Of a DNA stretch of 64,000 bases, positions 5,748-29,604 are shown in pieces; position 1 is the stretch's first letter, and the number at the start of each line of letters is the position of its first letter. A program made the translations under genes and the position numbers. The notes under the pieces are model-generated. The model was not told where the DNA came from, searched no databases, and saw nothing but the letters and a program-made list of their open reading frames with translations. This DNA is from Nemertoderma westbladi (taxonomy: Eukaryota > Animalia > Xenacoelomorpha): positions 36,552 to 100,551 of the forward strand of contig JAUCBJ010006459.1 in NCBI GenBank assembly GCA_032718475.1, read 5' to 3'.

Positions 5748-6448
5748 GTTCCCGAGTCGAGGGAGAGAGACTGGGACTTGGACGTGGTACGCCTGGAAGG
5801 CGCCGCGTGGGACGTACGAACTATTAAGTACAAATCTAATTAATGCAAATAATCATATAAGTGCAATTTGTATGTACGTACGTAGTAATTAGTAATCTAG
5901 AAATATATACGTTCGGAGTAAGTACTATAGTCATACAACCTTTCTCAATTAGCTACTGGGACTGGGGGATAACTGACTATGGGACTATGGACGAGACACC
6001 AGACAATTCCACACTTCTTGAGTGCGACGGCACAAGAGGGGGGGGGGGGAGATTCTGTCAGAAGGGATGGGACAGTCAGAGTGAGGTTGAGGGACGGAAT
6101 AATAGTGCGGAGTGCGGAGAGAGTGCGGACGCAATTCTAGTGTGGGGGGGGGAGAATAAGAGGCTGAGCGAGGGACGAGGAGGTCCGAGTGTGAGAGAGT
6201 TAGGGTGAGAGTGAAGGTGAGATAGGGCGGAAGTGTTGGGGAAACAAAAGTTGCGTGAAAGGTGAGCGCGATCGGCCCGACATGAGACGCCAGGCACACA
6301 GGGTAGCGTTATCATACCCATAGGGGGCGGCCTGGAAAGCCGGCTCCAAGAGAAAAGAATTCCACCCCACACCCGATACTAGATCGGGATCCAGCGGGAT
6401 TGTAGCGCACTTTTTGGTTGATGCTATCTTCTTACCGGGAAGATAGCA

Positions 6449-6458
6449 TGGGGGGGAG
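6449..6458 (+). promoter_or_regulatory. Polypurine tract of element B
   Basis: G-run plus AG immediately before TGTTAGC; preceded by a perfect 11-bp hairpin (6421-6449). Confidence 0.8.
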
Positions 6459-6990
6459 TGTTAGCTTATTCAATCCCGCTAACACCCCATAAAGTTATAA
6501 GCCGATAAGCAATATTGGGAGCCACGAGATTGGGCAATTAACCAACTCGTGCCATCCCAATAAGAGTGGGAAGGAAGCACACAATAAAGGGTCAGGGGCC
6601 AAACCCCTAACCCAGAGAGTACAGGTGGAGTGAACGGGAACACTCCACGGGGCGCCAACAAGGGTATCAACCAATCAGAGGGGGGCAAGGCATCGATTGA
6701 GTAGAGCAATAAGGCCACCGTGCAATATAACCAGTAACACAATGTCAGTAATTCAGTTATCTCAGTGCAGTGTAGGTTAGTTAGTTTAGATAGGGGAGCA
6801 CGGGACTTTAGTTACCGTATCCCGCCTTCCGTATATTATACTACAGTCATCATATCTATATCTTATACCTATCAATTATTATACACCGAATATCAGAACT
6901 CATTCACTATTTCCGTTTACTCTTTATACACGGCGGGGACGCGTAAACTAAACACCGGATAAATCGGGATCCCTCCTGGATCCCGTCACA
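6459..6990 (+). repeat. 3' LTR of element B (~532 bp)
   Basis: Starts TGT after the PPT and ends ACA; TATA-like AATATAA near 6724 followed by TCAGT Inr-like motifs. No partner LTR in the window, so the right end is inferred. Confidence 0.7.
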
Positions 6991-7043
6991 TTAAATCAAA
7001 GTCTTACAAATTCGAACGTCAACGAACAACTTCGAACGTTACT

Positions 7044-7117
7044 GTCCCACCTTGGTGTAGTGGTTGCGTTGAATTCACATCTCCCATAGTTCATGGGTTC
7101 AAACCCCGCATGGACCA
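7044..7117 (+). mobile_element. tRNA-derived SINE head or tRNA pseudogene
   Basis: A box TGGTGTAGTGG, B box GGTTCAAACC, GTCC...GGAC acceptor-like ends; anticodon arm degenerate. Confidence 0.6.
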
Positions 7118-8458
7118 GGGCAGATTTCGTTCGGTCAGCAATAGGCCTAAGTATACAAAATGCAGTATTATTGCCTAGTAACCAATTCATAGCTACTATA
7201 TGGTTTTCACTTTGAGAAATTTCGCCCTCTAGTGGCAGACTGGGGAACTTCAGACTACTCTGTGACTCCGCAAAAGATATAGCCTATATTGTAATAGATA
7301 CCGAGTGGGGGGGGGGGGGTCAAAATTAAGTAATAATATATCTAAATAAGTCTCAAACATCTTGCCTCATGGCTCGCCCCTCAGAACTCTTAAACAATAT
7401 AGGTTCATAGTTTTTAAGGAAAACTGGTAAACGAGATTTGTTAATAGTTAATAGAAAACAATATATAAAGTAAAAGTAATACAAATAATTAAAGTAAAAG
7501 TAAATACAAATATTTAATTTAAAATTAAATACAAATAAATAAATTAAAATGAAATACAAATAAATAAGTATCAATAAATAAAAGAGCTGAGGTGTCACTT
7601 ATGACACCCTCTTGGGCAGCTTTGTGACAGTTGGACAACACAGACACCATTGCGTGTTAGGGCGCTAATCAGTCTGATTAATTAGGATAATCAATTAAAC
7701 CCTAACTAGGAGTCATAAGACAACTATTAGGATGTTGATTAATTTTCCTCCATGATCATCTTTTAGGTTGTAATCTAAGAGATGAATATAATTTTCAGAA
7801 GCCTCAATATCGATTGTACTTAAAACTTTCCTTGCTTTTTCAGAAAAAAACAATTTTATAATTATCATCACCTCGACGGGAAATAGTATAATCAATAATA
7901 ATATACGGCTCGCCATCTTCTGAAAAAAATTAATGTCTTACTATTGGCATATCCATATCAGAAGACATTATTTAATTTATTTTAATGTAAATCAAACAAA
8001 GTAAAAACTTTTTAATCTAAAACCATTATGCGCAGTTGATTATCGATCGTCGATTCTTTCAAGTATATGATGCGAGTAGCAGATGGTCGTCGTAGAGTGG
8101 AATTGAGTGAATTTCAATAGTCCTCCCTACGGGATGTCCCTTGAAAAGCATAGGGAGGACATCCTTCTACTACTGGGGCGTGTCACTGAATTACGACACT
8201 ATAAGTAGTATAGACTTGGGTGGCTTTGTGACACTTAGACCAAACTGACTGGCGCCAGACTGTCTGGGTGACACCCAATGTCACCCTATGGGTGTCATTT
8301 GGCACCTCCTAATTAGGCTATTTAGACCCTAATTGACAGGTGTCATCCATAAAATAGTACAATTAAACCATAATTTCGTAGGGATAGATGTCGATCTAGT
8401 TTTATTTCAAACTTTTCACCACCCTCGTTGTATTGCATAATAACAATTAACTCGTCTA

Positions 8459-10752
8459 TCATTGATAATAGTAAGGAGGTATGTTGGGATTATATTTGTT
8501 CGTGTTGTTATTTTGTTTCTGTCCCTGCCACGGTGTGGCCCTACTCCCAGCTAACTGTGGACTTGTAGTCCCCTGCGTGGCCGCATGCGTTAGTGATTGC
8601 CTCACTTTAGGAAATGCATCTGCCGGACTATGTTCCAGTTTAGGTCGGCTGCATTCCGCATTCGGTACTTTGCCTAGACTGTCCTCACTATAGACTGGAT
8701 CCGTTATTAGCTCCGCCTCGTAGTTTAGGAAGTTCGACATCTCCTCCAACCCTGGCTCCGCACCCTTCTTCTCTCGAGTGGAGAAAGCGATCTTTCTCCA
8801 TTTGTTCCTTTACCAAATCGGTAGTGCCTGCGCTATGTTCTAGTGCCTGCGCTAGTGCCTTGTTCTATGCACTTAGTTCGTATGGTGCATCTAGGGTCTT
8901 TAAGACTATCAGCACCTTTTCTACTCTGTTAGCAAAAGTCTTGATGCTAACAGGGTTATCTGCGAGTCCGCCTGATGTTATTTCCCTTAAGGTTTGTCGG
9001 ATATAATCTTAGCAGGATGGCCAAATTACCTGTCCAGGGCTCTCCACGCAGTTGTAAATCCTCCTTCAATTCCTTGGTATTGCCTTACGATGTCATAGGC
9101 TGGACCCCCTGTATAGACATGTAGATATTTTAGGCACTCCGCCTGTGTGTGATTTTTCATCAAAATCTCATTGCTGTACATCCTCCAGAACTGTAGATAT
9201 TCTCCCGGCTTGCTACCATCAAACTTAAAAGGCTCCTCTGGTGGCAGCTCTATTCTAGTTTTCAGCGCGTCGATGAGTGTTGCTATTGCCATCGCTTTAA
9301 TTTACAGCGTGCTCAATGGTACGGATGCAGGCTCCTTCAATGTTGACTGTGCTTCACCTCTCGGGTTTGTCGACTTTCCCTGAGTGGGATATATCATCGG
9401 GGGTGGCGGTACCTCCATATCTCCGTGTCATATGATTTATTTGTATCTGAGGGGGTCGGGGTTTTTAATTTTGGTTGTGTGTGTGGATACAGTAATGGGG
9501 GGAATGTCACCATGCCCCCCCCCCCCCCCCCCCACCGATGTTATATTTGACATTGGGGTAGATGTCATTTTGTTGGGGCCCATACACCTATCTGCAATAC
9601 CCCCCCCCCCCCTCCCCTGGGTATGTGTTATATCCCTGCATATTATAGTCATACAAGTGTGCAGGTACCGGTATAGGCCTAACAGGTTCCTGCATACTCA
9701 CCGGTATGTAAGCCGCGACCTCCGGGTCAAATCCCGGCATTCACGCTACCCTATCACCTACACTATCTCTCCCAACATGGCCTATAGTATGTGCAGTGAG
9801 ACTTACAGTATGTCCTGCAGTCTGCCTATGTTCCTCAGGATCGAAGTTTAATCTTCTCGAATATTCCGAGAACACCTCCCCGCAACTACCATATCGTCGA
9901 TCGGCAGCTACGTTCCGACGGGAAGTTTCCTTCAGATCCCTTCCTCTGTCTTCCTCCTCATACCGGTACACTCTGTACCCCTCACCCGGTGTGGTATATT
10001 TCGCCAGGTTGTGTTTCTCCGGGGCGACGGCAATATCCCGAAGTACGACCCCACTGGCTCTCCCCCTCTAGTTCAACTAGCGACGGTTCACTGTCCGTCC
10101 TATCTCGATGTCTCTGGTTGCCCGTAGCAACATTTCCTCATTTCTCCTCGCATCCTCTGGTTTCGGCGCCATATCCACGTTCATGAGGTCTCGTATCGAC
10201 CTCCTGGATGAACTCTACTGTTCTCCTTCCATCTTCTGAGTGGGCTCAACGTTTTCTCATTTGGCTGCTTACGGCACCAATGTCCCTCCCTCTGCCCAGT
10301 TGTATGGCCTCGCGGATATTCGTTGCCCTTCTACTATCCTCCGTCGTCGGGTGCCACAGTTCACTTAACCCACCGCACGCATTTCCCGCAGACATTCGTG
10401 AGGTGTCTGCCCCCCCTCTATTCTCCACTGTCGTTGGGAGCCCCGGTTCATTTGAATCACCGCGCATATTTCCCGTCGACATCCTATTGCGGTGGGGTGC
10501 CCTTCCCCCCCCCACCCGTCACTTCGCCCCACCCCCCTGCCCATGTTCCCCTCTAGTCGAGTTACTTCTGTTCTCCCTGGGTTCATTCGCCTGCGTTTCT
10601 CCCTGCGCAACCGCGTGGCCTTGTAGGCCCCCGCTAGGCGAATTACCTATTTCCCCAACGTTTGTATTAATCATACCGCCACTAGCCTCACCCTCATCAT
10701 TCATTATATTATTACTTGCATTATTTTGATTAATTTCAGCGGGATTATTCAT
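8459..10752 (-). pseudogene. gag: Decayed BEL/Pao gag (DUF1759-type), third element
   Basis: IELPPEEPFKFDGS..EYLQFW...LKYLHVYTGGPAYDIV...AWRALD and FLNYEAELITDPVYS, spread over several broken frames. Confidence 0.8.
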
Positions 10753-11449: not shown

Positions 11450-12780
11450 GGAGAAAATTCCCGTAATTCAAACCCGCTTGTACAGTGTTGTACTTTTAAT
11501 GCTCAGTCATTGGGTAACAAACTATTGGATCTTGAACTGTTTTTATCCGATTCAAGATGTGACTTAATCGGTATTACCGAATCGTGGTTAACTGATGATA
11601 TTACCGACGAGATGTTAAGTGGCGATGGGAAATTTAATGTGTATAGAAATGACCGTACTACTAGAGGTGGCGGTGTGGTCTTACTTGTTAAAAAAGAAAT
11701 AATTGCTATAAAGGTTCCCCTAAATAACATGAAGTATGGTAGCGATATTGAAGTTGTTGCAGTAGATTTACTAAGTAACACTCCATCTCGTGTAATATGT
11801 GCATATAGATCGCCATCTTCTAGTATAGATACTGATACCCGTTTTTGTAAATATTTATCAGATTTATGTGAGGTACAGTACCCAGTCGCACTCTGTGGTG
11901 ATTTTAATCTCAGACTATTTGACTGGCAAACAAATTCACACCCAGACAGTCCATTGTATAATCTATTTGCAAACTTTATCCTGGATAATGGTTTAACTCA
12001 ATTACAGTACAACCCCACACGATTGAGTAGTGTTCTTGATTTGGTGTTTACGTCAGATGAGTTATTTATTTCTAATGTTCATGTTTCTGCTGGTTTAGGT
12101 ACGAGTGATCACGATGGATCAGTATTTTTTAGCATTTTCACCCCGCAACCGGAAACTTATGATGACCGCGATTTTTATTATGATTTTAAAAATGCAGATT
12201 ATGTAAACTTTTCTAGATTTGTTGATAATAATAATTGGGTATCCGAGTATGAATCATGTATATCTGTTAATGACTACTGGACAACATTTAGTAATATTTT
12301 AAAATCTGGTATAGAACGTTTTGTTCCTCGAATTTTACTGCGAAAGTCAAATAAGAGATCATATCCGGCTTACGTACGAACTCTTCAAAAAAGAAAAAAA
12401 ATAGCGTGGCGGCGAAGACACACTGTAGATGGCCAGGCCGAATACAAAAGGTGTGCCAAAGCAGCTTCAAAGGCGGTTTACCGTGCCGCATGTATTCGTG
12501 AAAATAAGATACTAAGTTCTGGTAAGTCGGATGCAATTTTCTCTTACGTAAATTCAAAGCGTAACAATCGAGCTGGTATTTCCGCTTTTAAGTACAATGG
12601 TAGTATTATTGTTGACGATTGCGCGAGAGCTAATATACTTGCAAGTGTGTTTACAGAAAATTTCACCACTGATGATAATGTTTTGCCAAATTTTACCAAT
12701 AAAGTATCTTCTAGTGTGCATATATCGAATATAGACTTTTCACCTGTTAATGTTTTTTCAGTTCTTCGTAAATTAGAGCC
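11450..12780 (+). pseudogene. LINE ORF2 part 1: APE endonuclease and linker
   Basis: FNAQSL.NK, GITESWL, RGGGV, YRSP, GDFN, LDLVF, SDH. Confidence 0.93.
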
Positions 12781-14680
12781 TATTGGAAGAGACAGTAACA
12801 ATACCTGCAATATCCTACTGTAAAGTTTGTGAATCAAATCATAAATCCGACCTTCTCACCAAAACAGTAAACTCTAAGTAAGCGAATATATTGCAGTATC
12901 GATCTCTTATAACCGGTGAGGCAGAAAACAGTCTACGAGCAGACAAACTTCGATAAAACAAAATCCCGCGCAGCGAATCCTAAAATCAGGCTGACTCACT
13001 GACGGACTAAGGGGCTCGTATACCTTGCCGCGGTGTGATTTATATGGTTGGGCGAAGAGACGCTAGCTAGGTACAGAGGCAGATATTTGGAGATGTCTAA
13101 CTAGCGGGCAAAGCACAGTACGGACAAAGTTAATTTTATATATTTCGAGGTGTAAATAATTTCTAACGCGCGTGTGTTAATTCTGAACGGTCAAACAGTT
13201 TTGCTCCTTCACATATATAATTACTGGGTACGGTGTGCATTTTACGAATATTCTAATTTTATAACTTGTAGGTCCAATACTCACGAATGATAAGGTTCCT
13301 TCCCCTCTTGCGTATTTCCAGGACTCAAATTCAGGCATAAGGTTAATGCTACGCCCAGAATTCGGCAATTTTAGGTACCAGGTCCCTGATACTAAGAAGA
13401 GATGTGTTAGTTTACTACTGTAGGCGTACAGTTACTAATAGCTATCCTGGCTCCTATCTAGAATTTTAGTCACCCAGGTAGTCCGGGTAACTTCCTATTA
13501 GGGCGTTGGCGGGGACACGGTAGATGTTAGTATATCCCTGATAGCCTCAATTTATTTGCGCCTAGTATGTAAACTGCCCTACCGCCCGAACGGTACAATC
13601 CTAATTCAGGTGAAAACACAATAACCCTCCTAGCCTACAAGTTCTGATGTAATGGACACCGTTGTACGGCAAATAGTCACAGACGCACCTGTACTTAGCA
13701 AGAGTTAAGCGTACAGTTTGCTGCACCCTAACCAATTTGTATGCTTCGTACCGGTGTGCCTACGTCCTATCTGCATACTAGTATCTGCCTGCGCTCTCCC
13801 TCCCCCGTAGGAATGTGAAGGTCTACTGTAGGTTTTCCTGAATCAAGACAGTACAGTCCCTATGATGTAATTTTGGGCTTACAGCGTGTCACTACGTCTA
13901 CCTTTTGATCTTTTGGTCTTACACTTAGGTAGCAAGGATCGAACGCTGTCTAACCTTTCAGGCGATGGGCGAATAACTCTAAAATGGTATTGCGGGTTGT
14001 CTCTCGTCTACATTCCCGTGATGTTCCCGTTCATTGCTGCGGCCCGATCTCTAGCCGGCCATCCTGTCCCTGAGTTTGTTCACCGTAGTGAATCCATAGT
14101 AAAACAGATAGAAAAGCTGAGAGAATATTCTGACTTTATTACAGAAGATACAATTATAATACAATGCAATCTGAGAATAAACTAAGCACGACAGAATATT
14201 GATAAGATAATCTGTGAAGTAGAGATGTAAGTGAAGAAGTGAACTAATGAACGAAATCGCACCTTTATATACTAAATTTGTGCCGCAATCAATCGAGAAA
14301 ATTCTCGATTGTTCTATAGATTCTAACAAGGTTTTAAAGATAGCTATTGGTCCAGCTAATATATAACTTGCACGACATTGGTTACAATCAAATAACTACA
14401 GCCTCATTGGTACAGACAAATGCAATTAATTTGTAGCGGTTAATTTAAATGAGTTGAAATTCTGCACAAAAAATAATTCGCACTTACTAGGATTCGAACT
14501 CGATACCTACTACACATATAATTTCCAACGCTCTACCAACTGAGCTACTGAACCACTTGACCGATAGATGTACAAATGATAGAACCAATACGAATGAGAA
14601 CTCAAAGCAATCTTTACAAAGTTAATTCGAATAAAATAAAATTTTGAAAATCCACGGCATTTAGGGAATATAATTCTATA
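12781..14680 (-). repeat. 3' LTR of element A (1900 bp)
   Basis: Direct repeat of 32759-34660, with about 6 substitutions and 2 single-base indels seen by eye. Confidence 0.97.
14468..14554 (-). ncRNA. tRNA-derived Pol III unit within the 3' LTR
   Basis: GGTTCAGTAGCTCAGTTGGTAGAGC (A box, intact D arm), GAGTTCGAATCC (B box), T6 terminator at 14473-14468. Confidence 0.7.
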
Positions 14681-15552: not shown

Positions 15553-18500
15553 TTATCGCTTAGTGGATCGAGCCCTGCCGCGTCCTCGAAAACTGCGCAC
15601 AGGTGACTTTGCTCGCGATATGGGACTTGTGGGGCGAGTCACTGGTTTACTTGGGACGTTGAGAGACGGTGCGACTATTTCCTCGCAAATTCGTCTATTT
15701 GGCATCCCAAAACCTCGACCGATTCCTCGTGACCAATCAGTCGTCACTACAGTTGGTAGAACGTCTGGGAACGCGCGAAAGGCGGACGACGCAGACCCAA
15801 GAGTAGCTTGCGCCCCCTGTTGATCAGCTGGTGTATGTCCCGACCCTCCTACTGGTTCTCTTGGAAGTGATACCGTATCCCGAGTAACTCGAATAGTCGG
15901 CTCAACTCCTTTGCGTTCTTCTACATTAATAATTTTCTTTAATTGTTGGCCCACCTTTTGGACCCGTATGATCCTACCCTGCCCGTCCTCCCGAGGGTGA
16001 CGTGCAGACGGCGCAACCGGAGTGGCTGGTATATTCGTCGCCTCTAGGACCTCCTCTTCCTCGAATACGCTCGCTCGTATACGTTTATGGTAAAACGCGG
16101 CTCGGTACGCCCATGCGACGGTTAACCAAGCTCCCTTGTTCCGCTTTTCAGTTCGGAAACGATCGAATTCACCATACGTAATCCGATTAACGACTTTCTG
16201 AAAATTCCACGTGTTTTTGTTATCCGGGTGAATTTGTAACAGATACTCGCGCACCACTCGGAATCCGCTGTCGTGGGGCAAAATATCGACAACCTCGATA
16301 AGTTCGTCATATTGGGGCATAGCGGAGATATATCCTTCCGACATCATCGTCTGGGGATTTACCGCCCAAAATCCGAGATGCGCTCTCATCAGAAACCGTC
16401 TTCTCTGTGCCGATACATGTTCGTCGGCCAAATCTTCCCACTCATCAAATAACTTCCTTACGAGTTTTACAGATTCGTGTTCATAAGGTATGTCCCTTAG
16501 TTGGCATTCAGATGCTCGATGTCCCTTTATATTGCAGTAAGTACATTGAGCCATAAATCTCCAGCAAGTATAAAAGGTATGAGACCCTTGATCCCCACAC
16601 CATCCACAGATTAGCTGAGTCGTAGTAATGTGCTTTCCACTGCACTTTGACATATGATGTCCAGCGACGCCACATTTACTACACATCGTATTGGCAGGGT
16701 ACCACACTCGTTCGTATATAAGATCTCCAATCGGTCGAGCGCTTCCTCCCATACTATAATCGTAATCATCTGGGTCTATGGGTTGGTAGGTTTCTGAAGG
16801 TTGTATACAAACTATAGCATCTGTTGCTTCAAGTTGTCGAATCTCCGTCTGAGATTTCTTCGGGAGGTTCCTTTCTATCTCAAGAAGTTCCTCTAAAGGA
16901 TCGTCGGCGATCGTAGTAGTTACTTCGAATTCATCACCAAGGTGACCGATAGGCGCGCGCGTCTGCCGTGATTCATCCGTAATTTCCACGATACGTTCTC
17001 CTTCATAGGGTAACAATGTAAACATAGATGGTCTTTCGATAAGAGATCCCGCACAGCGAAGATACACGTCTCGAAATATGCTAAATCCTGCTCGAGTAAA
17101 GGCATTACACTGAGCGTCGGAGTTGTAGAAGGGTTCAAGGAATCGTCTAAACACGTCGGTACGAATTCTCCCTTCCATGTAGAACGTATGATCTTCTCCG
17201 AGACAAAGTGGATGTCTTTTGAGAGTGCGAGACACAATGTCGGCGATTAGGCAAACATTCACTGACGACTCTATCGCTAAATAATATTGTAAGACCGCTC
17301 TTGGAGGTGACGTAATAGCCCAATACAATACACGCATCCTCTCCATTTAAGCTGTGATTCAAACTCACTCATATCTGGAGTATCACCTTCTCCATAAGTT
17401 TCAATATACTTGTTTCTCTTATTTTCCTTATAATCCCAATTGAATAACAGGTAGGAAATGTATCCAGTTCCAGTCTTCTGAGTATTATACTCACGAAAAT
17501 ATCCCTGTTCTATAGACCACAGAATAAGAGGTCGAGTGTCGACGTATGGTGTCGGTAGTCGGTCATCGCTGTCCGTCATGCCGGCGAAGTCGCTAATTAA
17601 ATCCTCCCTTACTCCTGATCCAACCTTTACAACAGTTTTATCTAAAATCATGTTTCTTACCATCTTCGGTAGCATTCTAGCGTCAATATTACAAGCTTGG
17701 TCCATCTTCTTTACTATATCGGTGATAAGATGGTGTCGCTTTGTATTCGCTGGAGGTATCGGCATTCGTTTGTCGCTCCTCTGTCTACTGAAAACGTGCA
17801 GGACTCCGTCCGCCGCTCTAATTTGTATAGTCTTAGAAGTCAAACTCTGCTGATGACTGCCGCCCTCGTTATCGTAAAACATATAACCGTTTTCCTGAAA
17901 CGATCTAAACGTCCTAGTCCATTCATCCAACAATTCTTCCGAAGGTTGCCAAATCTTCTCTATATCCTTATCCTCATCGAAACGAATAACCTTACCTCGC
18001 CAATCTGCGGCAATATCTGTATCCGACTCGAAGGTTCCGGTTCCAATCCATAAACGAATCGTCTTGGTTAGATATCCTTTCAGATTACTCAGAGCTATGT
18101 CGGCACCAGCTCTATCCAGTTCCTTGAAATCTTGAATATGAGGTGGAACGTTGTGCACGACCTTTTGAGTAATATGTCTACGTAAATCATATATCTTACT
18201 CATATCGCTGAAAACAACTGCAGGAAGAAACTCCAAGTTTGAAATGATTTCTGGATGATCCACGATGGGTATTTCGTACGTCGTATCCTGTCGGACTGGT
18301 ATACTAATAGGGAAATTGAGTGTCGTACTCAATGGTTTCGTAGTTGAAGTACTATACGGTTGCATTTCTCTTGGCCTCTCCGGGGATGCAATCTGTAATC
18401 TCTGAATAACGTTTTGAGCAAAGTTTATGCTCTCGAAAACTTCCGGTGTCATCTCCTTAGCTGAAGTTTGATCGTGTGACGTCCAATGGCAAGGTAGGCT

Positions 18501-19283
18501 CGCGAGTCTTCCACCCCATTCTTCCATCTCACCTTTCTCGAAAGCCTTGTAGGCTCTGTATAGGCTAAGAGCTTCTTTCTTTTCGCGGGTTGACTGATTC
18601 GCCTCGTCCAGCGTAAGTTCAAATACATCGGGTTCAACAACCTTAGGTGGGTAAATGACAGTTTCTCCCGCCTTTGGTCCGGTCATAGCAAATGAATAAT
18701 ATGGATTCGATAAAGGATACCCTCCTTCCTGGTAGCGTAGTTGTTGATGATTCGAACACCTCGCCAATATCGGTTCGGGATTTTCCTTATTCAAACGCAT
18801 CGGAATCGCATTTCGTTGTTCGCGCATACAAGAACCGCATTGATAATAAAGTTTATAAACCGAAAATGCTTCCTTGGTTTCTCTATCGTCCCCTCGAGTT
18901 CGTCTGTAAAGATGCATTCCATCGAATTCATCGCGTACCGCGGGCATAGGTTCGTGCGCCTTTAGGTATTGCATGGTATGATACAAACGACTAATTTCAG
19001 TATCGGGGTCTTCGCTAATGTCTCCCGTATCACACAAAGCATCGTACGGGTAAAGTTCGTTGAAGGTTTGGCGCAAACTTTCGATTCTTTCGTTTAATGC
19101 GTTTTGCCTTCTCTTTAATACGTTCGAGTCATATTTAGTTCTCGCGAGTTTCGCTGTACTTTCCGATAATTCTTTTATACCGAATATAGTATAATCCTTG
19201 GCTCCAAATCTTTAGAATGGCGCTGCTGCCTCCTCTTGGATATCATATCCCCATCTCGGCTCTCCTTGTATCCCTTTCTCCAT
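15553..19283 (-). CDS. Accessory ORF of element A (~1240 aa reconstructed): DEDDy 3'-5' exonuclease, three CCHC knuckles, conserved motif, basic tail; nonsense codon at 19214-19212 and frameshift near 17345
   Basis: ATG at 19283 is in frame with ORF 19076-17277. FYDNEG; LPKMVRNMILDKTVVKVGSGVREDL; QYYLAIE. CSKCGVAGHHMSKC, CGWCGDQGSHTFYTC and CTYCNIKGHRASEC in ORF 17346-15553. Confidence 0.82.
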
Positions 19284-19948
19284 AATTAGGGTGTAGTTAC
19301 ATAATCATTACTACTAGAGGGAATACAACAGAGTTTGTAGTTAGTTGTGAGGAGACGTGAGAGTTTCGTCTGCCCTTTGGGCTCGACAACGCTCTAACCT
19401 CCTACCCATAGCCTAAGATCTAGGGTTTCTTTAATGACACGCTGCTTCTTATCTAAAAATTTTTTTTTGCCGAAATAAAAACGAATTTTGGGCTAAACTG
19501 GCTGTGAGTCTAAAATACTCACTTTTTGATCCCAAACTATTATCAGAAAATAAGCAGTCAAGAATTAGTAATAAATATAGGGGAGTCTATTTTGACGTAA
19601 CTTATTGAAACAAGACCGTGTAAAATTTAATTAAAAATTTTTAAGAAAGGCTCGCAAGTCTTCCTCTCTTGTTTCTCTAATTTTAAGTTCCACCCGACTG
19701 TACCCTGAAATCTATTCACTGGAGAAAATTTTAAAATTTTTTCAAATCCAAATGGATTGTCTAAAATTTCGAAAATGTCTCAATATTGTGAGTTCCAAGT
19801 AGAATTCCATTTCTTAAACCTACAAATCCCGCTCCTATGTGACACATAAGGGTACTACCCTCAATGTTCACATATAAAGACAATGGAATTCTACCGCTGT
19901 CCTTACTACGGTGTACAGGTACGTGGAAATCTATTTGTAAACTCCTAA

Positions 19949-22900
19949 TTATTTACTAGTATTAGGTGGAGATTTGTAGTCTCCAGACTCGTTACGAGTC
20001 TCTTCAAGAAGTACGAGACGTTGAGTCGGTCTGTCTACTGTACGACCGTCAATTGTCCGTACTGTCACAGTCCTTGTCACTCCATCCATAGATGGATGTG
20101 TGGCTAAAATTACACCTGTTATCCAGAAGCGTCTTTTTAGATTCACTTCTGCCAACAGCACGTGATCTCCCGGCTTTAATGCGCGGGTGTTATTATACCA
20201 AGTTGTTCTGGCAGAAATAGAGGGCAAATAATGGTTTTGCCATATTTCCCAGAATTTGTTAGCCAGTAGTTGCGTGATTTTCCACGCTTTTCTACCGTAG
20301 CTGTCGCTTTCTATTGGAATAGAAATCGGCGTCAAAGTGGTCGGTGCCTGCATTAGCAGGTGTGCTGGTGTTAAAGCGAACTGAGATTGTTTGTCATCGG
20401 GTACTAATACTATTGGTCTAGTATTTAGTATTGCCTCGATTTCAACAAACAATGTTGTCAGTTGGTCGTCTGTTAATATGTGGTTTACTGGAATGACCTT
20501 TGCCATGGCTGTCTTTATAGATCTAATCAATCTCTCCCAGACTCCGCCTCTCCAAGGACTATCTGGAGGATTAAACTTCCAAACAATCTTGTGAGGTTGT
20601 AGTTCGTTCGAGATTTGATCATGATCTAATTTCTTAAAGGCTCTAGCAATCTCATTCCGAGCACCAACAAAGTTTGTCCCTTGGTCTGAGTACAAGCATT
20701 TCACTAGTCCGCGTCTAGCGATAAATCGCCGCAGTGCTAGTATAAACGCGTTGGTGGAAAGATCCATCACACGTTCAATGTGAACTGCCCTACTGGACAT
20801 ACATGTGAAAATCAGTCCCCAACGTTTTACTAGTATACGTCCACGTTTCGTATGTATGGGACCAAAGCAATCAATTCCAGTCTCTGTAAAAGGTGGTCTG
20901 AATGCTTGAAGTCGTGCTTGTGGTAGTTCACTCATTTCTTGGGTACCTATTCTAGAATGTACCTTTTTACAAATAATACACGTACGTGTCACTGAACTTA
21001 ACGCTTTACTGGGTCTAATCAATACAAATCTTGTACGTAAGTAGGAAAGACAGTGGTGTCTTCCAGCGTGTTTCAGATGTAGATGTGCGTCCAGTATCAT
21101 TGCACGTTGTAGTTCGTGGTGTTGCGGTATTATTATTGGGTACCTAAAGTTTGTGTTAAAGTCAATGTTTTGAAGCCGAGATTTATGACAAATTAAGCCA
21201 TTATAAATTATCGGACTCCAACTCAGTATTGGTGACGACTTGATTGGTTGACCTTGATTTATAGATGTGAATTCGCGCGCGAAATATCGCAGTTGATAAT
21301 GGCGAATTAATTTAATCTCACATCTGTCAATCTCAGTCAATGTAAGTCGACGCGTAAAGTCGCGTTTGCCTTTAACATATTGTACAAAACGTACAATCCA
21401 CGCTAATTTTCGGCAAGCGCTTGTCCAAGAATCTGTTAAGTTTACAATACGGTCGACATGAGTATTTGTGACGTCATCAGGTAAGTCAATGGAGATTTTG
21501 GAAGGTTTTGAATTACTAGAAGGGCCCACGGGTCCGCCGGTAGGTATTCCCTTGTTGACTGTTGATCCGTCGGGGTCTACAAGTAATTTGTCCTTCTTCG
21601 TCTTCTTACCTTGATCGTCAGTACTTTGTAAGTCGATCGTTAATGGTGGTTTGAACTCTATGGGGTCAGCAGGTTTCGGTAAACTTATTTTCCTGCCGAC
21701 ATTAATCCCAGGTCTCACCATAGGTTGCAAGTTCGGTATGTCTCTTGAGCGCAAAGTAACACCTGTATTTACATTAGCGTAGGTACTACCCACATCTGTA
21801 ATACATGAGGTTTCACCGTGCTTATGGTTGCTCAAGTGTGTCGAATTTGGTAGTTTGTCAATACAAGGCCGCTCCAATAGGGAAACTGCGGCTTTATTGT
21901 TAGTCGATACATTACTAATGTCCGGTAGAACATTTTGTGATGTTTCTGACAAAATGTCTAGTCGACTGTCTAGTAATGTGTCTGGCGATACGTCTGGTAA
22001 CGTATCTGGTTGTTTGTCAATAGAAGGCCGCTCCAATAGGGAAACTGCGGCTTTACTGTTTGTCAGTGTGTTACTAGCGTCTGGTGGAACATTTTGTGAT
22101 ATGTCTGGCAAAATGTCTGGTTGGCTGTCTAGTAACATGTCTGGTTGACCGTCTGGTAACGTGTCTGGTTGACCGTCTGGCGATATGTCTGGTGTAGAAA
22201 GGCTCGCAAGTCTTCCTCTCTTGACCTTTGAAGTTATATCTTTCCATTTTGCCTTCGGTTTCTTCTTGAGTTTTGCCGCCGTTGTCTTTTTCTTTGTCTT
22301 CCCCTTTTTTGGTTTCTTGATTTCGGCGTCCTTTGGGATAGTGTTGGATTTGTTGTCGTATAACGGAGGCCAATCTTGTGTCGATTTCTGCAAGAATTGG
22401 GGTCCGTGTTGCCAAAATTCTTTGTTCTCCGGTTTACAGAATTCCTCAGGCATCATTCCTCGCGACGCAATATCAGCTGGGTTTTGTGGTCCGGGACAAT
22501 GTCGCCAATCCTCTTTTATTGAACGGTCTAGAATTTCCGCGCGACGGTTAGCTACGAATGTCTTGAATTCGAGTGTGTCGTTGTTTATGTAAAATAAAAC
22601 CAACGTCGCGTCAGTCCAATAAAATATCTGTAAACTCGACTGTAGTTCTGTCTGTATGAGGTTCACGATGGTGGTTGGCAGGGTTGCGGCTTGTAGCTCG
22701 GCTCGTGGTGTCGTCATATACTTAGTAGGCATGGTCTTAGCCTTAGAAGTAATGAGCGAAACATCGAACTCGTCTGATTCTACTTGTCTGCGCAAGTACG
22801 CTGCCACACCAAAACCGTTGTCACTGGCGTCAGAAAAACAGTGTAGTTCCAAGTTGTCAGGAAATGTACTTTGTAATGGAAAGTAAACCCTGGGTATGGA

Positions 22901-24481
22901 ATAATCCTCTAGCGAAGATAATTCCGCCTCCCAGGTCTTCCATAAGTCCACTTGGTCTGATGAGATCGGCTCGTCCCATGTTAGTCCATCCTTCCATATA
23001 CTGCGCATATAAATGCGGGCTTGCAGTATCACTGGACTGATGAATCCTAACGGATCGAACAATCGGCTCAACTTTGACAAGCATGATCTCTTTGTCAGTG
23101 TGTTCTCTTGACTGTCCAGTCTCACTTTCACTCGGAAGTTGTCTGTGTTTGGGTCCCAAAAGAGCCCCAACACCTTAGTCGTCGGTAGTGGTTCGAACTC
23201 TAGGTCTATGTCACCACCTCCACGCTCAGTCGTCCCGAATGAGTCTACTAATTCGGCACTGTTTGAGGCGAATTTGGTGAGGTTAAAACCTCCGCCCGCT
23301 AAGCAGTCCCGTAATTGATGTGCTACTGTTGTAGCACGTTCTACTGTGTCGCAACTCTGTAAACCGTCATCTACATAAAAGTCACGCTCCACAATCCTAA
23401 TTATCTCTGGGTCATACAGGTGTTTCTGATCCCTAGCGGCCTGCTTTAGGGCGTACATCGTGCAATTTGGGCTGTCTCTGGCACCGAAAACGCGAACTTG
23501 CATTTGGTAAGTCGCCGGTGGTAAACTTAAGTCTCCTTCCGGGTACCAGAGGAACCGCAAACTGTCTCTGTCTCGCTCTAACGCTCTCACTTGGTGAAAC
23601 ATCGCTTCAACGTCACAAGTAAAAGCTACTTGACGCTGACGGAAGCGCATAATCACCCCCATAAGATAATTATTCATGTTTGGTCCATCCATCAACTCAC
23701 TATTGAGGGACATTCCCTCAAACAGAGCCGCGCAGTCGTTGACTACGCGTACTTTATCTGGTTTGTCGGGATGTCTCACATAGTGATGTGGCAAGTAATA
23801 GGTTTGGTCAGTCACTATCTCCGGGTTAGTCATTCGGATAGCGTATCCCTTAGTCAAATACGTCTCCATCTGAGTGTTGTACTGCAGATGGGCCTTCTCG
23901 TCCTTTAATAGACGTTGCCGTATTGAGTGTAGACGTCTTAAAGCCAGTGGATAGTTGTTTATAAGTTTAGGACTTTGGCTACGCCATAACATCCCTACCT
24001 CATAATGTCCGTCTTTCGTCTGGTGGATAGTATCTTCCATGATCTTCAGAGATTGTTTCTCCTGTTCCGACATACAAGGTTCGTAGCTACCAGGTTCAGG
24101 TGTATCTTGTTCTAACCACCTGATAGTCTTCTCCGTTAATTCCTTGTCTAGCACAGCTTGTTCCAACTGATGATTTCTCAACGCGTCATCATCGATCTCG
24201 ACGGGCACTGTTGAGGTTATTGGGGTAGGTAGACTCGCAAGCCTATCATCTGTCGTCGATGGAATCTCTAGCTGACTCGTCTTCTCCCCAAGTTCTAAAC
24301 TCACCTGGTGAATTAGCTGCTCCTTGTGACTTATCATACTAGTTACACGTCTGTTATGTTTTGTCGACTGTAGTGTAGTATGGTTCACGTCGTGTGAGAA
24401 GGAATGAATTGAATTTGTAGTTAATAAACTACATGTACTCTGTACATCGTCTTCCTCGTCACTTACGTCTAGTGTGCGCAC
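19949..24481 (-). CDS. pol: BEL/Pao pol: RT, peptidase A17/RNase H, low-complexity insert, integrase
   Basis: YLPHH, KVRVVNDC, DVEAMFHQV, FGARDSP, FYVDDG, KVLGLFW, FDPLG, FSDAS, PRAEL, NPADIASRG, GIDCFGP, SDQGTNF, WERLI, LTPAHLL. Confidence 0.97.
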   Translation of the reverse strand: MRTLDVSDEEDDVQSTCSLLTTNSIHSFSHDVNHTTLQSTKHNRRVTSMISHKEQLIHQVSLELGEKTSQLEIPSTTDDRLASLPTPITSTVPVEIDDDALRNHQLEQAVLDKELTEKTIRWLEQDTPEPGSYEPCMSEQEKQSLKIMEDTIHQTKDGHYEVGMLWRSQSPKLINNYPLALRRLHSIRQRLLKDEKAHLQYNTQMETYLTKGYAIRMTNPEIVTDQTYYLPHHYVRHPDKPDKVRVVNDCAALFEGMSLNSELMDGPNMNNYLMGVIMRFRQRQVAFTCDVEAMFHQVRALERDRDSLRFLWYPEGDLSLPPATYQMQVRVFGARDSPNCTMYALKQAARDQKHLYDPEIIRIVERDFYVDDGLQSCDTVERATTVAHQLRDCLAGGGFNLTKFASNSAELVDSFGTTERGGGDIDLEFEPLPTTKVLGLFWDPNTDNFRVKVRLDSQENTLTKRSCLSKLSRLFDPLGFISPVILQARIYMRSIWKDGLTWDEPISSDQVDLWKTWEAELSSLEDYSIPRVYFPLQSTFPDNLELHCFSDASDNGFGVAAYLRRQVESDEFDVSLITSKAKTMPTKYMTTPRAELQAATLPTTIVNLIQTELQSSLQIFYWTDATLVLFYINNDTLEFKTFVANRRAEILDRSIKEDWRHCPGPQNPADIASRGMMPEEFCKPENKEFWQHGPQFLQKSTQDWPPLYDNKSNTIPKDAEIKKPKKGKTKKKTTAAKLKKKPKAKWKDITSKVKRGRLASLSTPDISPDGQPDTLPDGQPDMLLDSQPDILPDISQNVPPDASNTLTNSKAAVSLLERPSIDKQPDTLPDVSPDTLLDSRLDILSETSQNVLPDISNVSTNNKAAVSLLERPCIDKLPNSTHLSNHKHGETSCITDVGSTYANVNTGVTLRSRDIPNLQPMVRPGINVGRKISLPKPADPIEFKPPLTIDLQSTDDQGKKTKKDKLLVDPDGSTVNKGIPTGGPVGPSSNSKPSKISIDLPDDVTNTHVDRIVNLTDSWTSACRKLAWIVRFVQYVKGKRDFTRRLTLTEIDRCEIKLIRHYQLRYFAREFTSINQGQPIKSSPILSWSPIIYNGLICHKSRLQNIDFNTNFRYPIIIPQHHELQRAMILDAHLHLKHAGRHHCLSYLRTRFVLIRPSKALSSVTRTCIICKKVHSRIGTQEMSELPQARLQAFRPPFTETGIDCFGPIHTKRGRILVKRWGLIFTCMSSRAVHIERVMDLSTNAFILALRRFIARRGLVKCLYSDQGTNFVGARNEIARAFKKLDHDQISNELQPHKIVWKFNPPDSPWRGGVWERLIRSIKTAMAKVIPVNHILTDDQLTTLFVEIEAILNTRPIVLVPDDKQSQFALTPAHLLMQAPTTLTPISIPIESDSYGRKAWKITQLLANKFWEIWQNHYLPSISARTTWYNNTRALKPGDHVLLAEVNLKRRFWITGVILATHPSMDGVTRTVTVRTIDGRTVDRPTQRLVLLEETRNESGDYKSPPNTSK

Positions 24482-24493
24482 AGGCGCTCGAGT

Positions 24494-25470
24494 TTACCAC
24501 CCTATCGGCGTTCTGCAGGCGTATGCGTTTCCCGCTACAACTGCCGATGGTCTGGTTTCCCACACCTGATGTAGGTTGAATTGGTCCGTCCCGATCAGCA
24601 TTGCTACCGATCTATAATTGACAGGACATTCGGGTACACCAAGGTGTCTGAAATACTTACGGTCCTCTAGAGATTGTTCCGGCACTGGACCTAGTAGGTT
24701 ACTAAAGTCCTTCGTGGCCGCAAAGGTTAGATCTCTAAAAGGTAACAAAGACCTCTCCCTCTCGCTGTGCTGCGATTTTGGAAGAAGAGAGTCTAAGTCC
24801 AACTTAACTCGTGTCACTGGTATTGCACGCTGTCCGTGCATACTACTTACTGTATAACTGACGTGCTTACCTTGCTTAAGATCCGTCACTACGTCAGCTA
24901 TCTTTTCATCCACGTAGCTATGAGATGAGGCTGAATCTAGAATCGCGTAGATCCTCTTACTCCCCTTTGTGCCAGTGATCTTAATCGGGATTACACTGAA
25001 TCCCTTCAGTTGGTCAGTGGTCAGAAGCGCGATCGACGGTTGTTCGTCTCCATTAGAATATTCGTCGTCGTCTTCTGATTCTTCGTCCGACGATCCGGAT
25101 TGTTCTGAGAAGCAATCCTCAATATGGGTCACGAAGGTTGGAGTCGTTTTCGATTCTCGTTTTCGGTAAGCCGCATCACATCTCGCTGCTGCTTCCGGGT
25201 GTTCCCTGGCGAAGCGTTTCGTCGGCGTGTGGCTGTCTGTGTGGAGCAGACCGTCGTGGTTGCGTCCACAGGATGGACAAGTGTCGGTATTTGGGCAATC
25301 TTTACGGACGTGTCCGTGTCGCGTACACCGCCAACAAGAGTCCAGTGGCCGTATTTGCAGCCGTCGTTCTTCCGAGTTCAACTCGCGAAATTGTCGACAA
25401 CCTCGTAACTTGTGACCGATATACCGCTTACCTAGATGCTCGCAGTATTGGCAGCCACTGAAGTCGGTAC
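24494..25470 (-). pseudogene. BEL/Pao triple Cys-His nucleocapsid and aspartic protease; in-frame TAA at 24496-24494 separates it from RT
   Basis: CQYC..H...C, CWRCTRHGHVRKDC, CPSCGRNHDGLLH; AILDSASSHSY; MLIGTD; TPIGW. Confidence 0.9.
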
Positions 25471-25534
25471 CAAGTTGCTGTCTCGTTTGTTTTGTCCCAA
25501 TGGGCGCAGATACCCTACCTCCGTCCGAGAATTG

Positions 25535-26338
25535 TCATGATTCCGTCGGTGTGGTGTAAGTGGCCGTCTTAGTGGATGTTGTCTGGGGTTTTTGTCGGTT
25601 GGAAGATGGCAATGTGATTCCTTCTGCCACGATGTGCTGGTCGGTGTAGTTAGATCTAGTTTCTACTACTGCCTCCCTGGATATTAAAAGGTACACATCT
25701 TCTAATTTTAAGAATCCTCCCCGCTCCTCTCGCTGGTATTCGACCTTCCTCCACTCCCGACGAAGTCGATGGTGGAGTCGTCCTATGATTTTTAATAGGA
25801 CTGTAGGAGTATTCCCGTAATCAAGTTGTCCAATTGATCTTAAGGTAGTGATAGCGTTCTTGATCTCGTCAGCTAGTTTTAGTAAGTCGACGGGTTTAGT
25901 GATAGCCCCTCCCTTACAGAGTTCCTCTATTACTGACCTGGCCATGCTCACTGTACCTCCGTATATCGAAGTTAAACGATCGTACGCTAGTTCGAAAGCG
26001 TCTGGTACACCGACGAAAGTCTCCGCCAAACGTTTAGGTTCTCCTGACAACGTTTGGAGCAGGTAATTGAACTTCTCCCGTGATGTGAAGGCGCACACGG
26101 CGATCTGGGATTCGATATAGTCTACGAAAGTATGCCAGTGTTTTGAGCTACCGGAAAACTTCGGTGGTTGTTGTACCGGCAATCCTTGTCTGGCTGCGAA
26201 TTTCGCTATCTCCTCGGCAACGTTCAGAGTTTCGCGTCCTTGGTTGGTAACCAGGTTGATATTCTCCCTTCTTGGCGCTTTTCCCTGATACGATGTGGGG
26301 TTTGAAGGTACCGGTCTTTGTGGTTCCTTCGGGTGTCT
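25535..26338 (-). pseudogene. gag: gag core (DUF1759-like) of element A, downstream of the DNA transposon insertion
   Basis: LPVQQPPKFSG..KHWHTF...KFNYLLQTLSGEPK...AYDRLTSIYG; frame open up to 26338. Confidence 0.9.
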
Positions 26339-29300
26339 TAGGGTGCATCAAATTTTGAAATGTTGGAAATTGATTATGCCTGGGTGATGTTTGTGTTCCA
26401 TTTGGGGAATTATGATGTGTGGACAAAAATTGTTCAATTCTGACGACATTTAGAGGTCCCACACCACCATGTTATATTTTAGCAACGGGCGATAAAACGC
26501 GATCAATATAGTTTCCACGAACGATCAAAATATCAATGTGCATGTATTTAGAAAAGTTTTGAAGTAATATTTATGTAAGAATTGTAATTTGCTTTAAAAT
26601 GATATGCTGCATGATGTACTTCAGAACATATATAAAGGACATAGCAGATATCAGCGTCTGGCTTCAGCCGAGCTGTATTTTTAGGTTTAGACCAATATAG
26701 ATCTATATAGCATGGAAGTAGCTTTGCTGATATAGTTTATACAATTAAACATATTTTAATAATGTTAATTTAGATTTCAAAACTTTTCAAAATTTCCTTA
26801 TCATATTAAGTTTTTTTCCTAATTCTTGTTCAAATAACACAAATAACTTCAAATAACTAATTGCAAACGGCAGAGATGTGATTGCGATATTCGATTAAAC
26901 AGTAAATTTGAACTCAAATTGAATATGAAAACATTTATGTGATAGCATCAACATTGATATATTCAAGAAATCAAGGTATATTAAATTATATGAATAATTG
27001 TTCCTAGGTGAAAATATTTATGGGCATAATAAGACACTGGATAGAAATATATAGAACATTCACAATTACCAATTATAGTATTAACAATATTTATATCAAT
27101 TATTTATTGAATTCTACACTAATACTATATAAAATATCACTCTAAATGGGTTAGGCAGACATATATAATATACACATATAGTACAATTGTTTATCAATCA
27201 GTCTTTTTGTTTATTTAGTCTTTTACATTTCCGTATATTTGGTCTCATTTTACTCCGTAAGTTTGGTCTCATTTTACGATCTTTCTCAACAACTTGCAGG
27301 ACGTTTTGAAAATGTTCTTCTGATTTGGCTGCTGACAGAAAGTCGCTGGTGAGCTTAACACCCCTTTCAGGACCATCGTTCAAAACATTCACTGAAGTAG
27401 CACGTGCTTTGCTTAATGCAAAGGCTGGATCGTTACACCAGTCTTTAACAGGGTTTTCGAGAAAACTTATATCTAACTTTAACATGTTAATTGTAAACCA
27501 AGAATCTGTTCCAGCCAATTCTGATAGTGTGGTAGCTGGGGTGATGCTCTTAGGAAATACTGGCTTTCCAAATCCAACACCAAATCGTTTATGAGGCACA
27601 GTTATTATCTCATTAGGTTTAATGGATAGTAAAGTGTCAGCAAGTTTGCGCAGCTCATCATGGGGTACTTTGTTGCTAAATAATGCAAGAGGTATCATTT
27701 CTTCTGTTAAGTACCAGAGATGACGATGAAATGCTTTGAGAGCCGAAGTTGATATAAGTCTATTTACACATTGATATTGAAGCAGCCGTTTGTAAAGTAC
27801 TAGATCATTCCATGGTGCATCTATCGCATTACCACAAGTTAACCACCATATACTGTAGACATGAGTTATGAATATGACAAACTCTCTAATTTTACTCACT
27901 TGCTGAATGCTGGTTATAGTTCCAGGAGGTAAAATAGCTATTTGTTTCTCAAATAAAGATAATTTTATACAATAAAGTAGTTTGGCCATCCACCTAGCCT
28001 TGTGCACTGCCCCTGGTCGCTGAAATGAAATTTGTTCATCCATGGCACCTACAAACAATAGTGAGAGTTGAATAAACTCTCTATAATCGTCCCGTTGCAG
28101 TTCCAGTCTGGCAGTTGCTAGCAGTTTCAACTCATTCTCTAGCAATGCAAGAAAGTCTTTGGAGTCGGAATTGGATGTCTCTGCATCAATCTGAAAATAA
28201 CTAAGCTCTTCATCAGATATATTTGGCATAAGGCCCCAATTATTTCTTAAGCGAATGAATAGAGAACTATCTGGAGATTTTGATACCTCAATTTTCAGGT
28301 CCTCAAATACATGTCCAATTAGAAGCTCTCCTATATGGTGACGACATCCAGACCATAAGAGGGGTTTGTTAATCCTTCCCTGAATAGAGATGCAAGCAGC
28401 TGATAAATGACCAGTATTTGAAGTTGTTGTGTCAAATGTCATATTGACAATATTATCAACACATTTCCACTTCTCAAGAAGAGGGTAAGTCAGACCAGAA
28501 ATTATATCACCAGAACCCTGATCCGAACCAGGCTTGTAACTTGGTACACCAAGCAACTTCAAATCGGTAGAGTCACCAACAAGGATAGCTACTCTCTCTT
28601 CGGATTTGTATTTATTTGATAATGTTCCCAGTAGCTTACTATCCCACTGAAGGGAGCATAGTTCTGGAGGTATCCATGAGTCATGATAATCCTTAGCTAC
28701 TTCTTTAACAATTGAACGCCGCGCTCTATCTGCCACTGCATATGATGTGGAAACACTTCCTATATCTCCTCCAGATTCTTCAATGATACCCTGTGTGAAG
28801 GCTGCTTGTTGCATTGGGGTCATTTTCAGTCTTGTTGCTAAAGAAACAACATTTGGTCTTTGCAGTATGTTGCTAGGAATTACAACTGATGTTCCTGTTT
28901 TTGTCTTTTTTTGTTCTTTTGTGGTAATACTGTTACCTCAAAATCAGATTCCAGTCCTGATTCCGATTCACTAGAATATTGAAATTGCTTTGTAGATGCG
29001 ATAACTTGTAGTTCATTCTTGCTTAAGATCTTCCTCTTTGTCTCAGCCATTTCTCTGTCCAAAGAACGCTTTACTTTATTATCTAATGTTTTATCATATG
29101 ATCCAAATGATGCAATACGATCTGTCTTCATGGATATTAAAAAAGCAAGGTCTTCTTTATTTTTTATAGTCTTTTCAGCATCGTGTGCCCATAGTTGTAA
29201 TGTTGATTCCATTCTTAATTCCATATCCTTTACTTTAATCTCTGTAGCCGCAGTACATCTCCTATCTTTTGGTATTGCACGAAGCTTGTTGTTATCATCC

Positions 29301-29604
29301 ATGAGCTTAACAATTTTATCACAACATCTCTGATCAGACAACATTGGAATACTGGCTTTTCTGTAAAATGGCCTGATTTTGTCAAGTATAATTTTTGATG
29401 TCTCCAGTCTTGAAAAAGTTCCACATCTTCCAGGGCGCTTTGATGATTTACCAGTCGATTTCATATGATGGTACAACATACATCTTAACACTTGACGGCA
29501 AGTTGGCAATCTAGTTCCATTAATTATACCATCATCATCCGTGATTGCTTTTCCTAAGCCAAAAATATATCCTGACTGCCGCGTTTTTGGAGTACTAATG
29601 TTAG
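26339..29604 (-). mobile_element. hAT-related (hATm-like) DNA transposon nested in gag; one TIR retained, the other end deleted
   Basis: TAGGGTGCATCAAATTTTG terminus at 26339; abrupt composition change; no matching TIR or TSD near 29604. Confidence 0.8.
27198..29600 (-). pseudogene. hATm-like DDE transposase (frameshift near 28900-28950)
   Basis: RLPTCRQVL, LQWDSK, FDTTTSNTG, CRHHIGEL, RDDYREF, PGAVHKARWMAK, HLWYLTEE, NDGPERGVKL. Confidence 0.85.

Follow-up and report, generated by a model that had tools for sequence, protein, structure and literature searches.

A DEDDy exonuclease and zinc knuckle gene downstream of pol in BEL/Pao-type retrotransposons

What might a retrotransposon gain from a nuclease gene standing where an env gene would be expected? 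The question is raised by a long terminal repeat (LTR) retrotransposon of BEL/Pao type from Nemertoderma westbladi (Xenacoelomorpha). It lies in a window of 64,000 nucleotides, the whole stretch of DNA analysed here (assembly GCA_032718475.1, contig JAUCBJ010006459.1, positions 36,552 to 100,551 of the forward strand). An earlier account made by a model from the letters alone, hereafter the sequence-only reading, had described a third open reading frame (ORF) of about 1240 codons between integrase and the 3' LTR, on the sense strand, encoding a DEDDy 3'-5' exonuclease fused to three CCHC zinc knuckles. The ORF is indeed there (ORF3; Table 1), and we are highly confident that BEL elements do carry it as a genuine DEDDy-knuckle ORF under selection.

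The gene and its family

The class of the host element was correctly named in the sequence-only reading. Its sequence places it with the BEL/Pao-type LTR retrotransposons because pol contains Peptidase_A17 (E 3.5e-42) and DUF5641, both above the Pfam cut-offs, and gag contains DUF1759. The pol order is protease, reverse transcriptase (RT), RNase H and integrase, with Pao-type domains, and the insertion is bounded by LTRs and a 5-bp target duplication. In ORF3, the motifs FYDNEG, KVGxGVxxD and Y-x3-E and the three knuckles are all in place, and the knuckles are beyond chance: among 20,000 shuffles none had two or more and five had one. The claim that the product is not an env protein also stands, as hydropathy found no transmembrane segment in ORF3 (best 19-residue Kyte-Doolittle mean 1.38) and its first 23 residues are polar.

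Taken alone, the window ORF3 protein matched no exonuclease family in Pfam and none by phmmer against the PDB. Pfam was equally blind to the exonuclease in five of six database homologs and in all four ORFs scanned from the metagenome loci described below; the family has therefore probably been overlooked in repeat annotations. A profile of the main ORF3 and its counterpart in a second element of the window retrieved six matches from 1.84 billion proteins (E 1e-4 to 8e-4). All six have the exonuclease motifs, and five also have three knuckles with the conserved block behind them. Profiles built without the window rows in turn recovered both window elements, through the exonuclease (E 4e-16 and 1e-22) and through the knuckle block (E 1e-14 and 9e-9). 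Among known proteins the family profile matched human EXD2 first (E 1.2e-9 and 1.7e-10) and Egalitarian second (E 9e-4). It also matched Trypanosoma brucei RNase D (TbRND) via both domains, RND being the PDB match that covers exonuclease and knuckles, and it matched NCp7 as well.

The predicted model of the window ExoI-ExoII piece (8 sequences; mean predicted local distance difference test, pLDDT, 67.5) points the same way. EXD2 ranks first in both Foldseek (E 3e-5) and VIA-align (Z 9.5, root-mean-square deviation 6.6, 129 aligned residues), and DnaQ/DEDD exonucleases fill the top of each list, with family A polymerases also among the fold matches. TbRND scored below EXD2 (domain E 6.7 against the family; Z 5.4). 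The D-x-E of ExoI and the D of ExoII are invariant in all eight rows of each of two alignments and align to EXD2. The ExoIII tyrosine is kept in 14/14 rows, followed by the canonical D (Y-x3-D) in ten and by E in four, the window copy being one of the four. The ORF3 domain is thus, as modelled and aligned, a DEDDy exonuclease with a DnaQ-like fold, which bears out the family assignment of the sequence-only reading for the piece that was folded.

Other routes to the family gave less. The predicted fold of the knuckle and post-knuckle region is poor (pLDDT 47.5) and not usable for structure search, and against PDB and Pfam this region returned nothing beyond generic knuckles. A structure search of BFVD yielded distant viral exonucleases only, all with E above 0.001; retrotransposon proteins bearing a name were not among them. 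Word-index protein searches added no new member among 1125 candidates with the window piece, only the query itself with a 9-row alignment, and five of 3847, all close kin of L001, with the locus alignment. For P0003 the first Atlas match was an RND-like cluster at 0.88, which serves as a lead only. A recent origin of the ORF3 knuckles by copying of the gag Cys-His boxes was unsupported, none of three gags scoring (best E 0.2). The N-terminal part of ORF3, which is lineage-specific, has a C-x2-C-x22-C-x2-H cluster (about 18750-18845, minus strand) that may be a further zinc site.

Selection and range

In the window copy ORF3 lies in three pieces, owing to an in-frame stop and to a change of frame where two ORFs overlap (17277-17346). 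The stretch is present in four DNA runs from three studies, all of one organism, and contigs from three of the runs (X1-X3) were used; they cover 30/30 bins of ORF3. At the stop site none of the covering depth agrees with the window (19, 3 and 9 contigs). At the frame-change site the differing depth amounts to all in X2 and X3 and 37% in X1 and fits one open frame. Because the contigs of other copies differ at both sites, the breaks belong largely to the window copy; programmed frameshifting as a means of joining the pieces was rejected, as other copies differ at that place.

The variants listed are the best-supported places, each scored alone against the window codon, and contig depth gives no copy number. 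Among the best 40 of 119 variable places, 37 fall within the ORF and away from the breaks; 19 of the 26 that vary among other copies are synonymous (31% expected, p 1.2e-5), as are 6 of the 11 at which the window alone differs. Of the 40 variants scored in the exonuclease region (best 40 of 68 places), 28 are synonymous where 28.7% would be expected (p 7.5e-8, rough omega 0.17), and those listed at the codons of the ExoI E and the ExoII D are synonymous. ORF3 copies are under purifying selection. The check proposed in the sequence-only reading, for an intact ORF in other copies and dN/dS below 1, thus came out in its favour, and between relatives dN/dS is 0.056-0.108 for the exonuclease (five pairs) and 0.098-0.152 for the knuckle region (two pairs), the dS of RT pairs being saturated.

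The family extends well beyond this element. The window holds a second, divergent BEL element (635-7300, plus strand), with a 5'-truncated pol (676-2844) and a tandem-repeat spacer (2980-3593), whose ORF at 4055-5311 aligns with the main ORF3 (E 2e-7, 25% identity). A metagenome scan with the exonuclease family gave at least nine loci (L001-L009) among the 598 pattern matches listed, from three assembly prefixes. In eight of these nine the exonuclease gene stands directly 3' of a BEL-type pol on the same strand; the L003 contig has no pol. Peptidase_A17 was found in all four long locus pol ORFs scanned and DUF5641 in a fifth, partial one, and Pao-type domains scored in L001, L002, L005 and L007. 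L005 and L006 are the same in both regions compared. Natural intact genes occur in L001, L004 and L007, and whole circular units, ORF3 included, measure 10.8 kb (L004), 10.7 kb (L005) and 9.8 kb (L007).

Identity over the C-terminal 500 residues of pol is 27-34% among the loci and both window elements, and 43-47% from one locus group to the other; over the same splits the exonuclease domains are 17-35% identical. The exonuclease gene is present in several deep BEL lineages, and its range is wider than first supposed. The genomic context covers loci L001-L009, not P0002, P0003, P0004 and P0006. The trees have long branches and include exonuclease-bearing elements only; they fit one old capture or repeated exchange alike. 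Viral contigs scanned for ORF3 relatives yielded none, nor did a scan of them with pol return BEL elements without ORF3 that could serve as controls; a genome-contig scan and a first metagenome scan found no relatives.

Possible roles of the enzyme

Three functional ideas were offered in the sequence-only reading: counter-defence against small RNAs, primer or 3'-end maturation, and proofreading of a very large element. Counter-defence appears to lead, and we tentatively favour a reading in which the ORF3 product is a knuckle-tethered 3'-5' exoribonuclease that blunts host small-RNA silencing for the element. Like env, ORF3 would be expressed from an RNA that is spliced or subgenomic; the donor-like site in the leader and the acceptor-like site ahead of the ORF3 ATG (Table 1) form a candidate env-style splice. 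As in trypanosome RNase D, the knuckles would hold on to single-stranded RNA while its 3' end is passed to the two-metal site. Substrates would be unprotected element-derived small-RNA precursors or slicer fragments, and trimming them would leave fewer guides against the element. Nibbler, a cellular relative, acts in a small-RNA pathway. The same is reported for mut-7 and EXD1 in the cited part of PMC5408684. That the substrate may be RNA is suggested by analogy, because in TbRND, as described in the cited sections of PMC7797062, the C-terminal knuckles are responsible for RNA binding and increase cleavage, and their removal abolishes visible binding and sharply lowers cleavage. The gene looks accessory, since the family profile of the ICTV, the international committee for virus taxonomy, lists only gag, pol and env (PMC8742986).

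Several observations weigh against this picture. The window copy is unable to make the full ORF3 protein. The complete architecture is not retained by all copies: that of the second window element is broken and has lost most knuckles, and the exonuclease gene of L003 is frameshifted. The folded piece lacks ExoIII, and its TM-scores are modest (0.35-0.42). The closest structural match, EXD2, acts on DNA and RNA according to the cited part of PMC6648332, and the catalytic domain is strongly conserved, which gives no hint of an arms race.

The primer site bears on the alternatives. The window element has no TGG at this position but 11 nt complementary to its own LTR, and all 11 pair with LTR nt 864-874, a match found by chance in 8 of 20,000 trials at that offset and in 58 of 20,000 over offsets 0-5. 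A purine tract follows LTR nt 864-874. On this complement the element looks self-primed, as a candidate. In six loci (L001, L003, L004, L005, L007, L009) a TGGCGCC tRNA-type primer site stands directly after the LTR. A warning against over-reading comes from L005/L006, whose LTR likewise contains a self-complement of 11 nt although the primer site of L005 is normal; LTR self-complements thus need not be primers. The L005/L006 complement joins the LTR start to a stretch near the LTR end and may circularise the RNA; L001, L003 and L004 have a similar one of 10 nt.

It is possible, if somewhat doubtful, that the enzyme instead processes the element's own RNA, trimming the 3' end of genomic RNA or primer or clearing RNA fragments from particles while reverse transcription proceeds. 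Knuckles of this class bind retroelement RNA, as in nucleocapsids, in keeping with the NCp7 match, and for the window element, with a self-complement in place of a tRNA primer site, a 3' end must be generated. A 3'-end processing role was also proposed in the cited part of the rotifer paper (PMC5408684). However, the six loci with a TGGCGCC site keep ORF3 under selection all the same, and most BEL elements, to judge from the ICTV profile, seem to replicate without such a gene. Primer maturation thus loses ground as a family role and keeps some for the window element. A combined scenario, in which an undescribed, widespread BEL/Pao group carries in the env slot a knuckle-tethered, small-RNA-trimming exonuclease that suppresses piRNA or siRNA silencing as counter-defence and was also co-opted here to cut a self-primer, strikes us as unlikely; if true, the window lineage would be the first self-priming BEL element. 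Proofreading for RT, or tidying of cDNA 3' ends, so as to permit a larger genome, is decidedly improbable. Family A polymerases with proofreading DEDDy domains are among the fold matches, EXD2 cuts DNA too (PMC6648332, part cited), and the window element, at about 18.6 kb, exceeds the 4.2-10 kb of the ICTV profile (PMC8742986). The circular units of 9.8-10.8 kb nevertheless show that the gene is not tied to large size, and it is separate from pol and bears RNA-type knuckles; the idea is weakened accordingly. Since the relatives are of ordinary size and have ordinary tRNA primer sites, neither proofreading nor primer-making looks like a role shared by the family.

In yet another scenario, which we deem improbable, the fold, like those of Egalitarian and EXD1, is chiefly an RNA-binding scaffold through which element RNA is exported, localised or packaged. 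Egalitarian is the second profile match, ExoIII has E for D in four of 14 rows, the window included, and a 17-nt motif repeated ten times inside the element could be a binding site. Against this, the four acidic positions persist across rows only 17-31% identical, which would hardly be expected of a dead fold, and the motif has a weak fold and is absent from the nine related loci except for one loose match. That ORF3 is a captured host gene carried as passive cargo is scarcely credible: the broken window and second-element copies would suit it, as would the deletion forms in X1-X3, from which about 2.0-2.1 kb of ORF3 with the exonuclease is missing, yet purifying selection among copies and between families already largely refutes it, and the gene keeps its place behind pol across lineages with no more than 27-34% pol identity.

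The host element, its neighbours and known systems

The coordinates of the main element and of the exonuclease region in the second are collected in Table 1. The main element is young, because its LTRs are 99.6% identical (99.58%, with 6 mismatches and 2 gap columns over 1903 columns), and it has split a CR1/L2-type LINE (long interspersed nuclear element) ORF. Its span of 21.9 kb falls to about 18.6 kb, the size given in the sequence-only reading, once a nested insertion of about 3.3 kb with approximate ends is subtracted; the gag-pol of this copy is further interrupted by two in-frame stops. The nested insertion lies in gag at about 26340-29605. Terminal repeats were searched for and not found, and its ORFs (27198-28937 and 28880-29932), without Pfam match, are presumably transposase-like. 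Two gag Cys-His boxes fit the pattern and a third, irregular one is visible by eye upstream; a triple Cys-His box is described as a BEL/Pao gag trait in the cited part of PMC554778.

Table 1. Features of the main element and of the exonuclease region of the second element, in window positions
Feature	Position	Strand	Remarks
ORF3, whole	19283-15553	-	about 1240 codons; between pol and 3' LTR, same strand as element
ORF3, first 23 codons	19215-19283	-	closed in this copy by in-frame stop 19212-19214
ORF3, middle piece (644 aa)	17277-19211	-	lineage-specific N-terminal ~400 aa, then ExoI and ExoII
ORF3, last piece (597 aa)	15553-17346	-	other frame; ExoIII, knuckles, post-knuckle block, variable tail
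ExoI, FYDNEG	17862-17879	-	D 17871-17873, E 17865-17867
ExoII, KVGSGVRED	17601-17627	-	D 17601-17603
ExoIII type, YLAIE (Y-x3-E)	17269-17283	-	E at the canonical D position
Three CCHC knuckles	16504-16683	-	16642-16683, 16564-16608, 16504-16545
Post-knuckle block, F-E/D-x-x-A-D...R...G-F	16294-16503	-	conserved; limits approximate; no Pfam or PDB match
Acceptor-like site	19311-19331	-	~30 nt ahead of ORF3 ATG
Donor-like GGTGAGT	32335-32341	-	in leader
3' LTR	12781-14680	-	1.9 kb; sense ends TATAG...CAATA, not TG...CA
5' LTR	32759-34660	-	1.9 kb; 99.6% identity to 3' LTR
Target-site duplication, 5 bp	12776-12780, 34661-34665		flanks insertion
pol	19949-24493	-	RT, RNase H (Peptidase_A17), integrase (H2C2, DUF5641); from Pfam and ORF list
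gag capsid region (DUF1759), Cys-His boxes, protease region	24494-26347	-	two in-frame stops in this copy
Likely gag N-terminal part	29601-31967	-	severed by nested insertion; no Pfam match
Primer-site position	32748-32758	-	11 nt, no TGG; complementary to LTR nt 864-874 (13807-13817; 33786-33796)
Second element, exonuclease ORF	4055-5311	+	ILDDEG 4406-4423, KVGSAIRED 4613-4639, YILQE 4928-4942
Second element, last-knuckle remnant and post-knuckle block	5172-5747	+	other frame; block 5193-5324

The 17-nt motif occurs ten times (0.02 expected), nine times in the same orientation, between 14980 and 31864, solely in the internal region of the element and partly inside coding sequence. It is a possible packaging or protein-binding signal; its consensus hairpin, at -0.51 kcal/mol and without a compensatory pair, is weak. 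A tRNA-like A-box/B-box stretch is seen close to the sense start of the LTR, at 14485-14560 and in the 5' LTR copy, and a tRNA identity was rejected, ARAGORN and Rfam both being negative.

As for the neighbours, window positions 1-634 (plus strand) hold a third LTR of the main family (96.7%), then 8 nt of its leader, followed by the second-element pol, a boundary that is possibly a deletion or recombination junction between two families. The second element has a purine tract plus TGT at about 6460-6470. By eye, a third gag-like region lies in fragments at 8459-9301 (minus strand), and LINE-type RT ORFs at 36373-39894, 49743-51383 and 51473-52825 (all minus strand), one apparently intact (1173 aa).

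With the Belpaoviridae that have an env-like ORF3 (PMC8742986) the element shares the gag-pol order, Pao-type domains and a third gene after pol. It differs in that the third gene is an enzyme and in its 1.9 kb LTRs with TA..TA ends, its size of about 18.6 kb and the lack of a tRNA primer site. The ICTV profile gives genomes of 4.2-10 kb, LTRs of 0.2-1.2 kb and an 18-nt tRNA-Arg/Gly primer site (PMC8742986), so that on TGG site, LTR length and size the element departs from the Semotivirus traits. As in Tf1/Sushi-type self-priming, the primer position is complementary to the element's own LTR. The self-primer of Tf1 is likewise 11 nt long. The cited part of PMC6317226 describes self-priming in Tf1/Sushi, in Tcn1 and in certain Copia elements of plants, and the site, if real, would extend the mechanism beyond these.

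The EXD2/WRN-exo/Nibbler-Mut-7/Egalitarian group provides the best sequence and structure matches and has the LP...KVG...D segment in common. ORF3 differs by its 14-17% identity, its added knuckles, its coding by a retrotransposon and the absence of the N-terminal membrane anchor that EXD2 carries (PMC6648332, part cited). TbRND (PDB 7C42/7C45; PMC7797062, sections cited) likewise combines a DEDDy exonuclease with a C-terminal CCHC knuckle array, which boosts the trimming of small guide RNAs; it is a cellular enzyme with four knuckles directly after the domain, whereas ORF3 has three after a linker of about 130-200 aa, plus the conserved block. The shared architecture may be convergent, because the exonuclease match is weaker than that to EXD2 (Z 5.4 versus 9.5).

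Full-text literature searches, which excluded subscription papers, supplements, Repbase, Dfam and GyDB, gave no precedent for an exonuclease in BEL/Pao among the matches listed, and the word 'exonuclease' is absent from the main text of PMC3118150, PMC6238403, PMC9094657, PMC2774666 and PMC554778 and from the ICTV profile (PMC8742986). The novelty claimed in the sequence-only reading therefore stands for BEL/Pao within the literature searched, Repbase aside, and falls for the exonuclease-knuckle architecture, which is known in trypanosome RNase D. Papers of 1999-2001 on the Cer elements of C. elegans reportedly noted extra ORFs and unusual priming.

Juno and Vesta, among the closest known parallels, are Ty3/Gypsy elements. 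In keeping with the sequence-only reading, which pointed to bdelloid Ty3/Gypsy elements and Terminons, DEDDy ORF3s of bdelloid rotifer Juno, Vesta and Terminons are described, with a DEED motif and unproven activity, in the cited passages of PMC5408684, PMC6431247 and PMC5718144. Like the gene studied here, they are RNase D-like, lie downstream of pol in the env position and are without transmembrane segments. Compared by description only, they differ in the motif, DEED against DEDD or DEDE here, the third acid being D in all our rows, and in the hosts, Juno, Vesta and Athena/Terminon against BEL/Pao-type elements; no knuckle array is described for them in those passages, only a Cys-His-Cys motif in Vesta2 and Vesta5. 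Exonuclease ORF3s, previously a rotifer curiosity, are now found in a second LTR superfamily, in several lineages whose pol identity is about 30%, where they are under strong purifying selection and have a putatively RNA-gripping module attached. The intact natural genes make it directly testable whether animal retrotransposons encode enzymes against small-RNA silencing.

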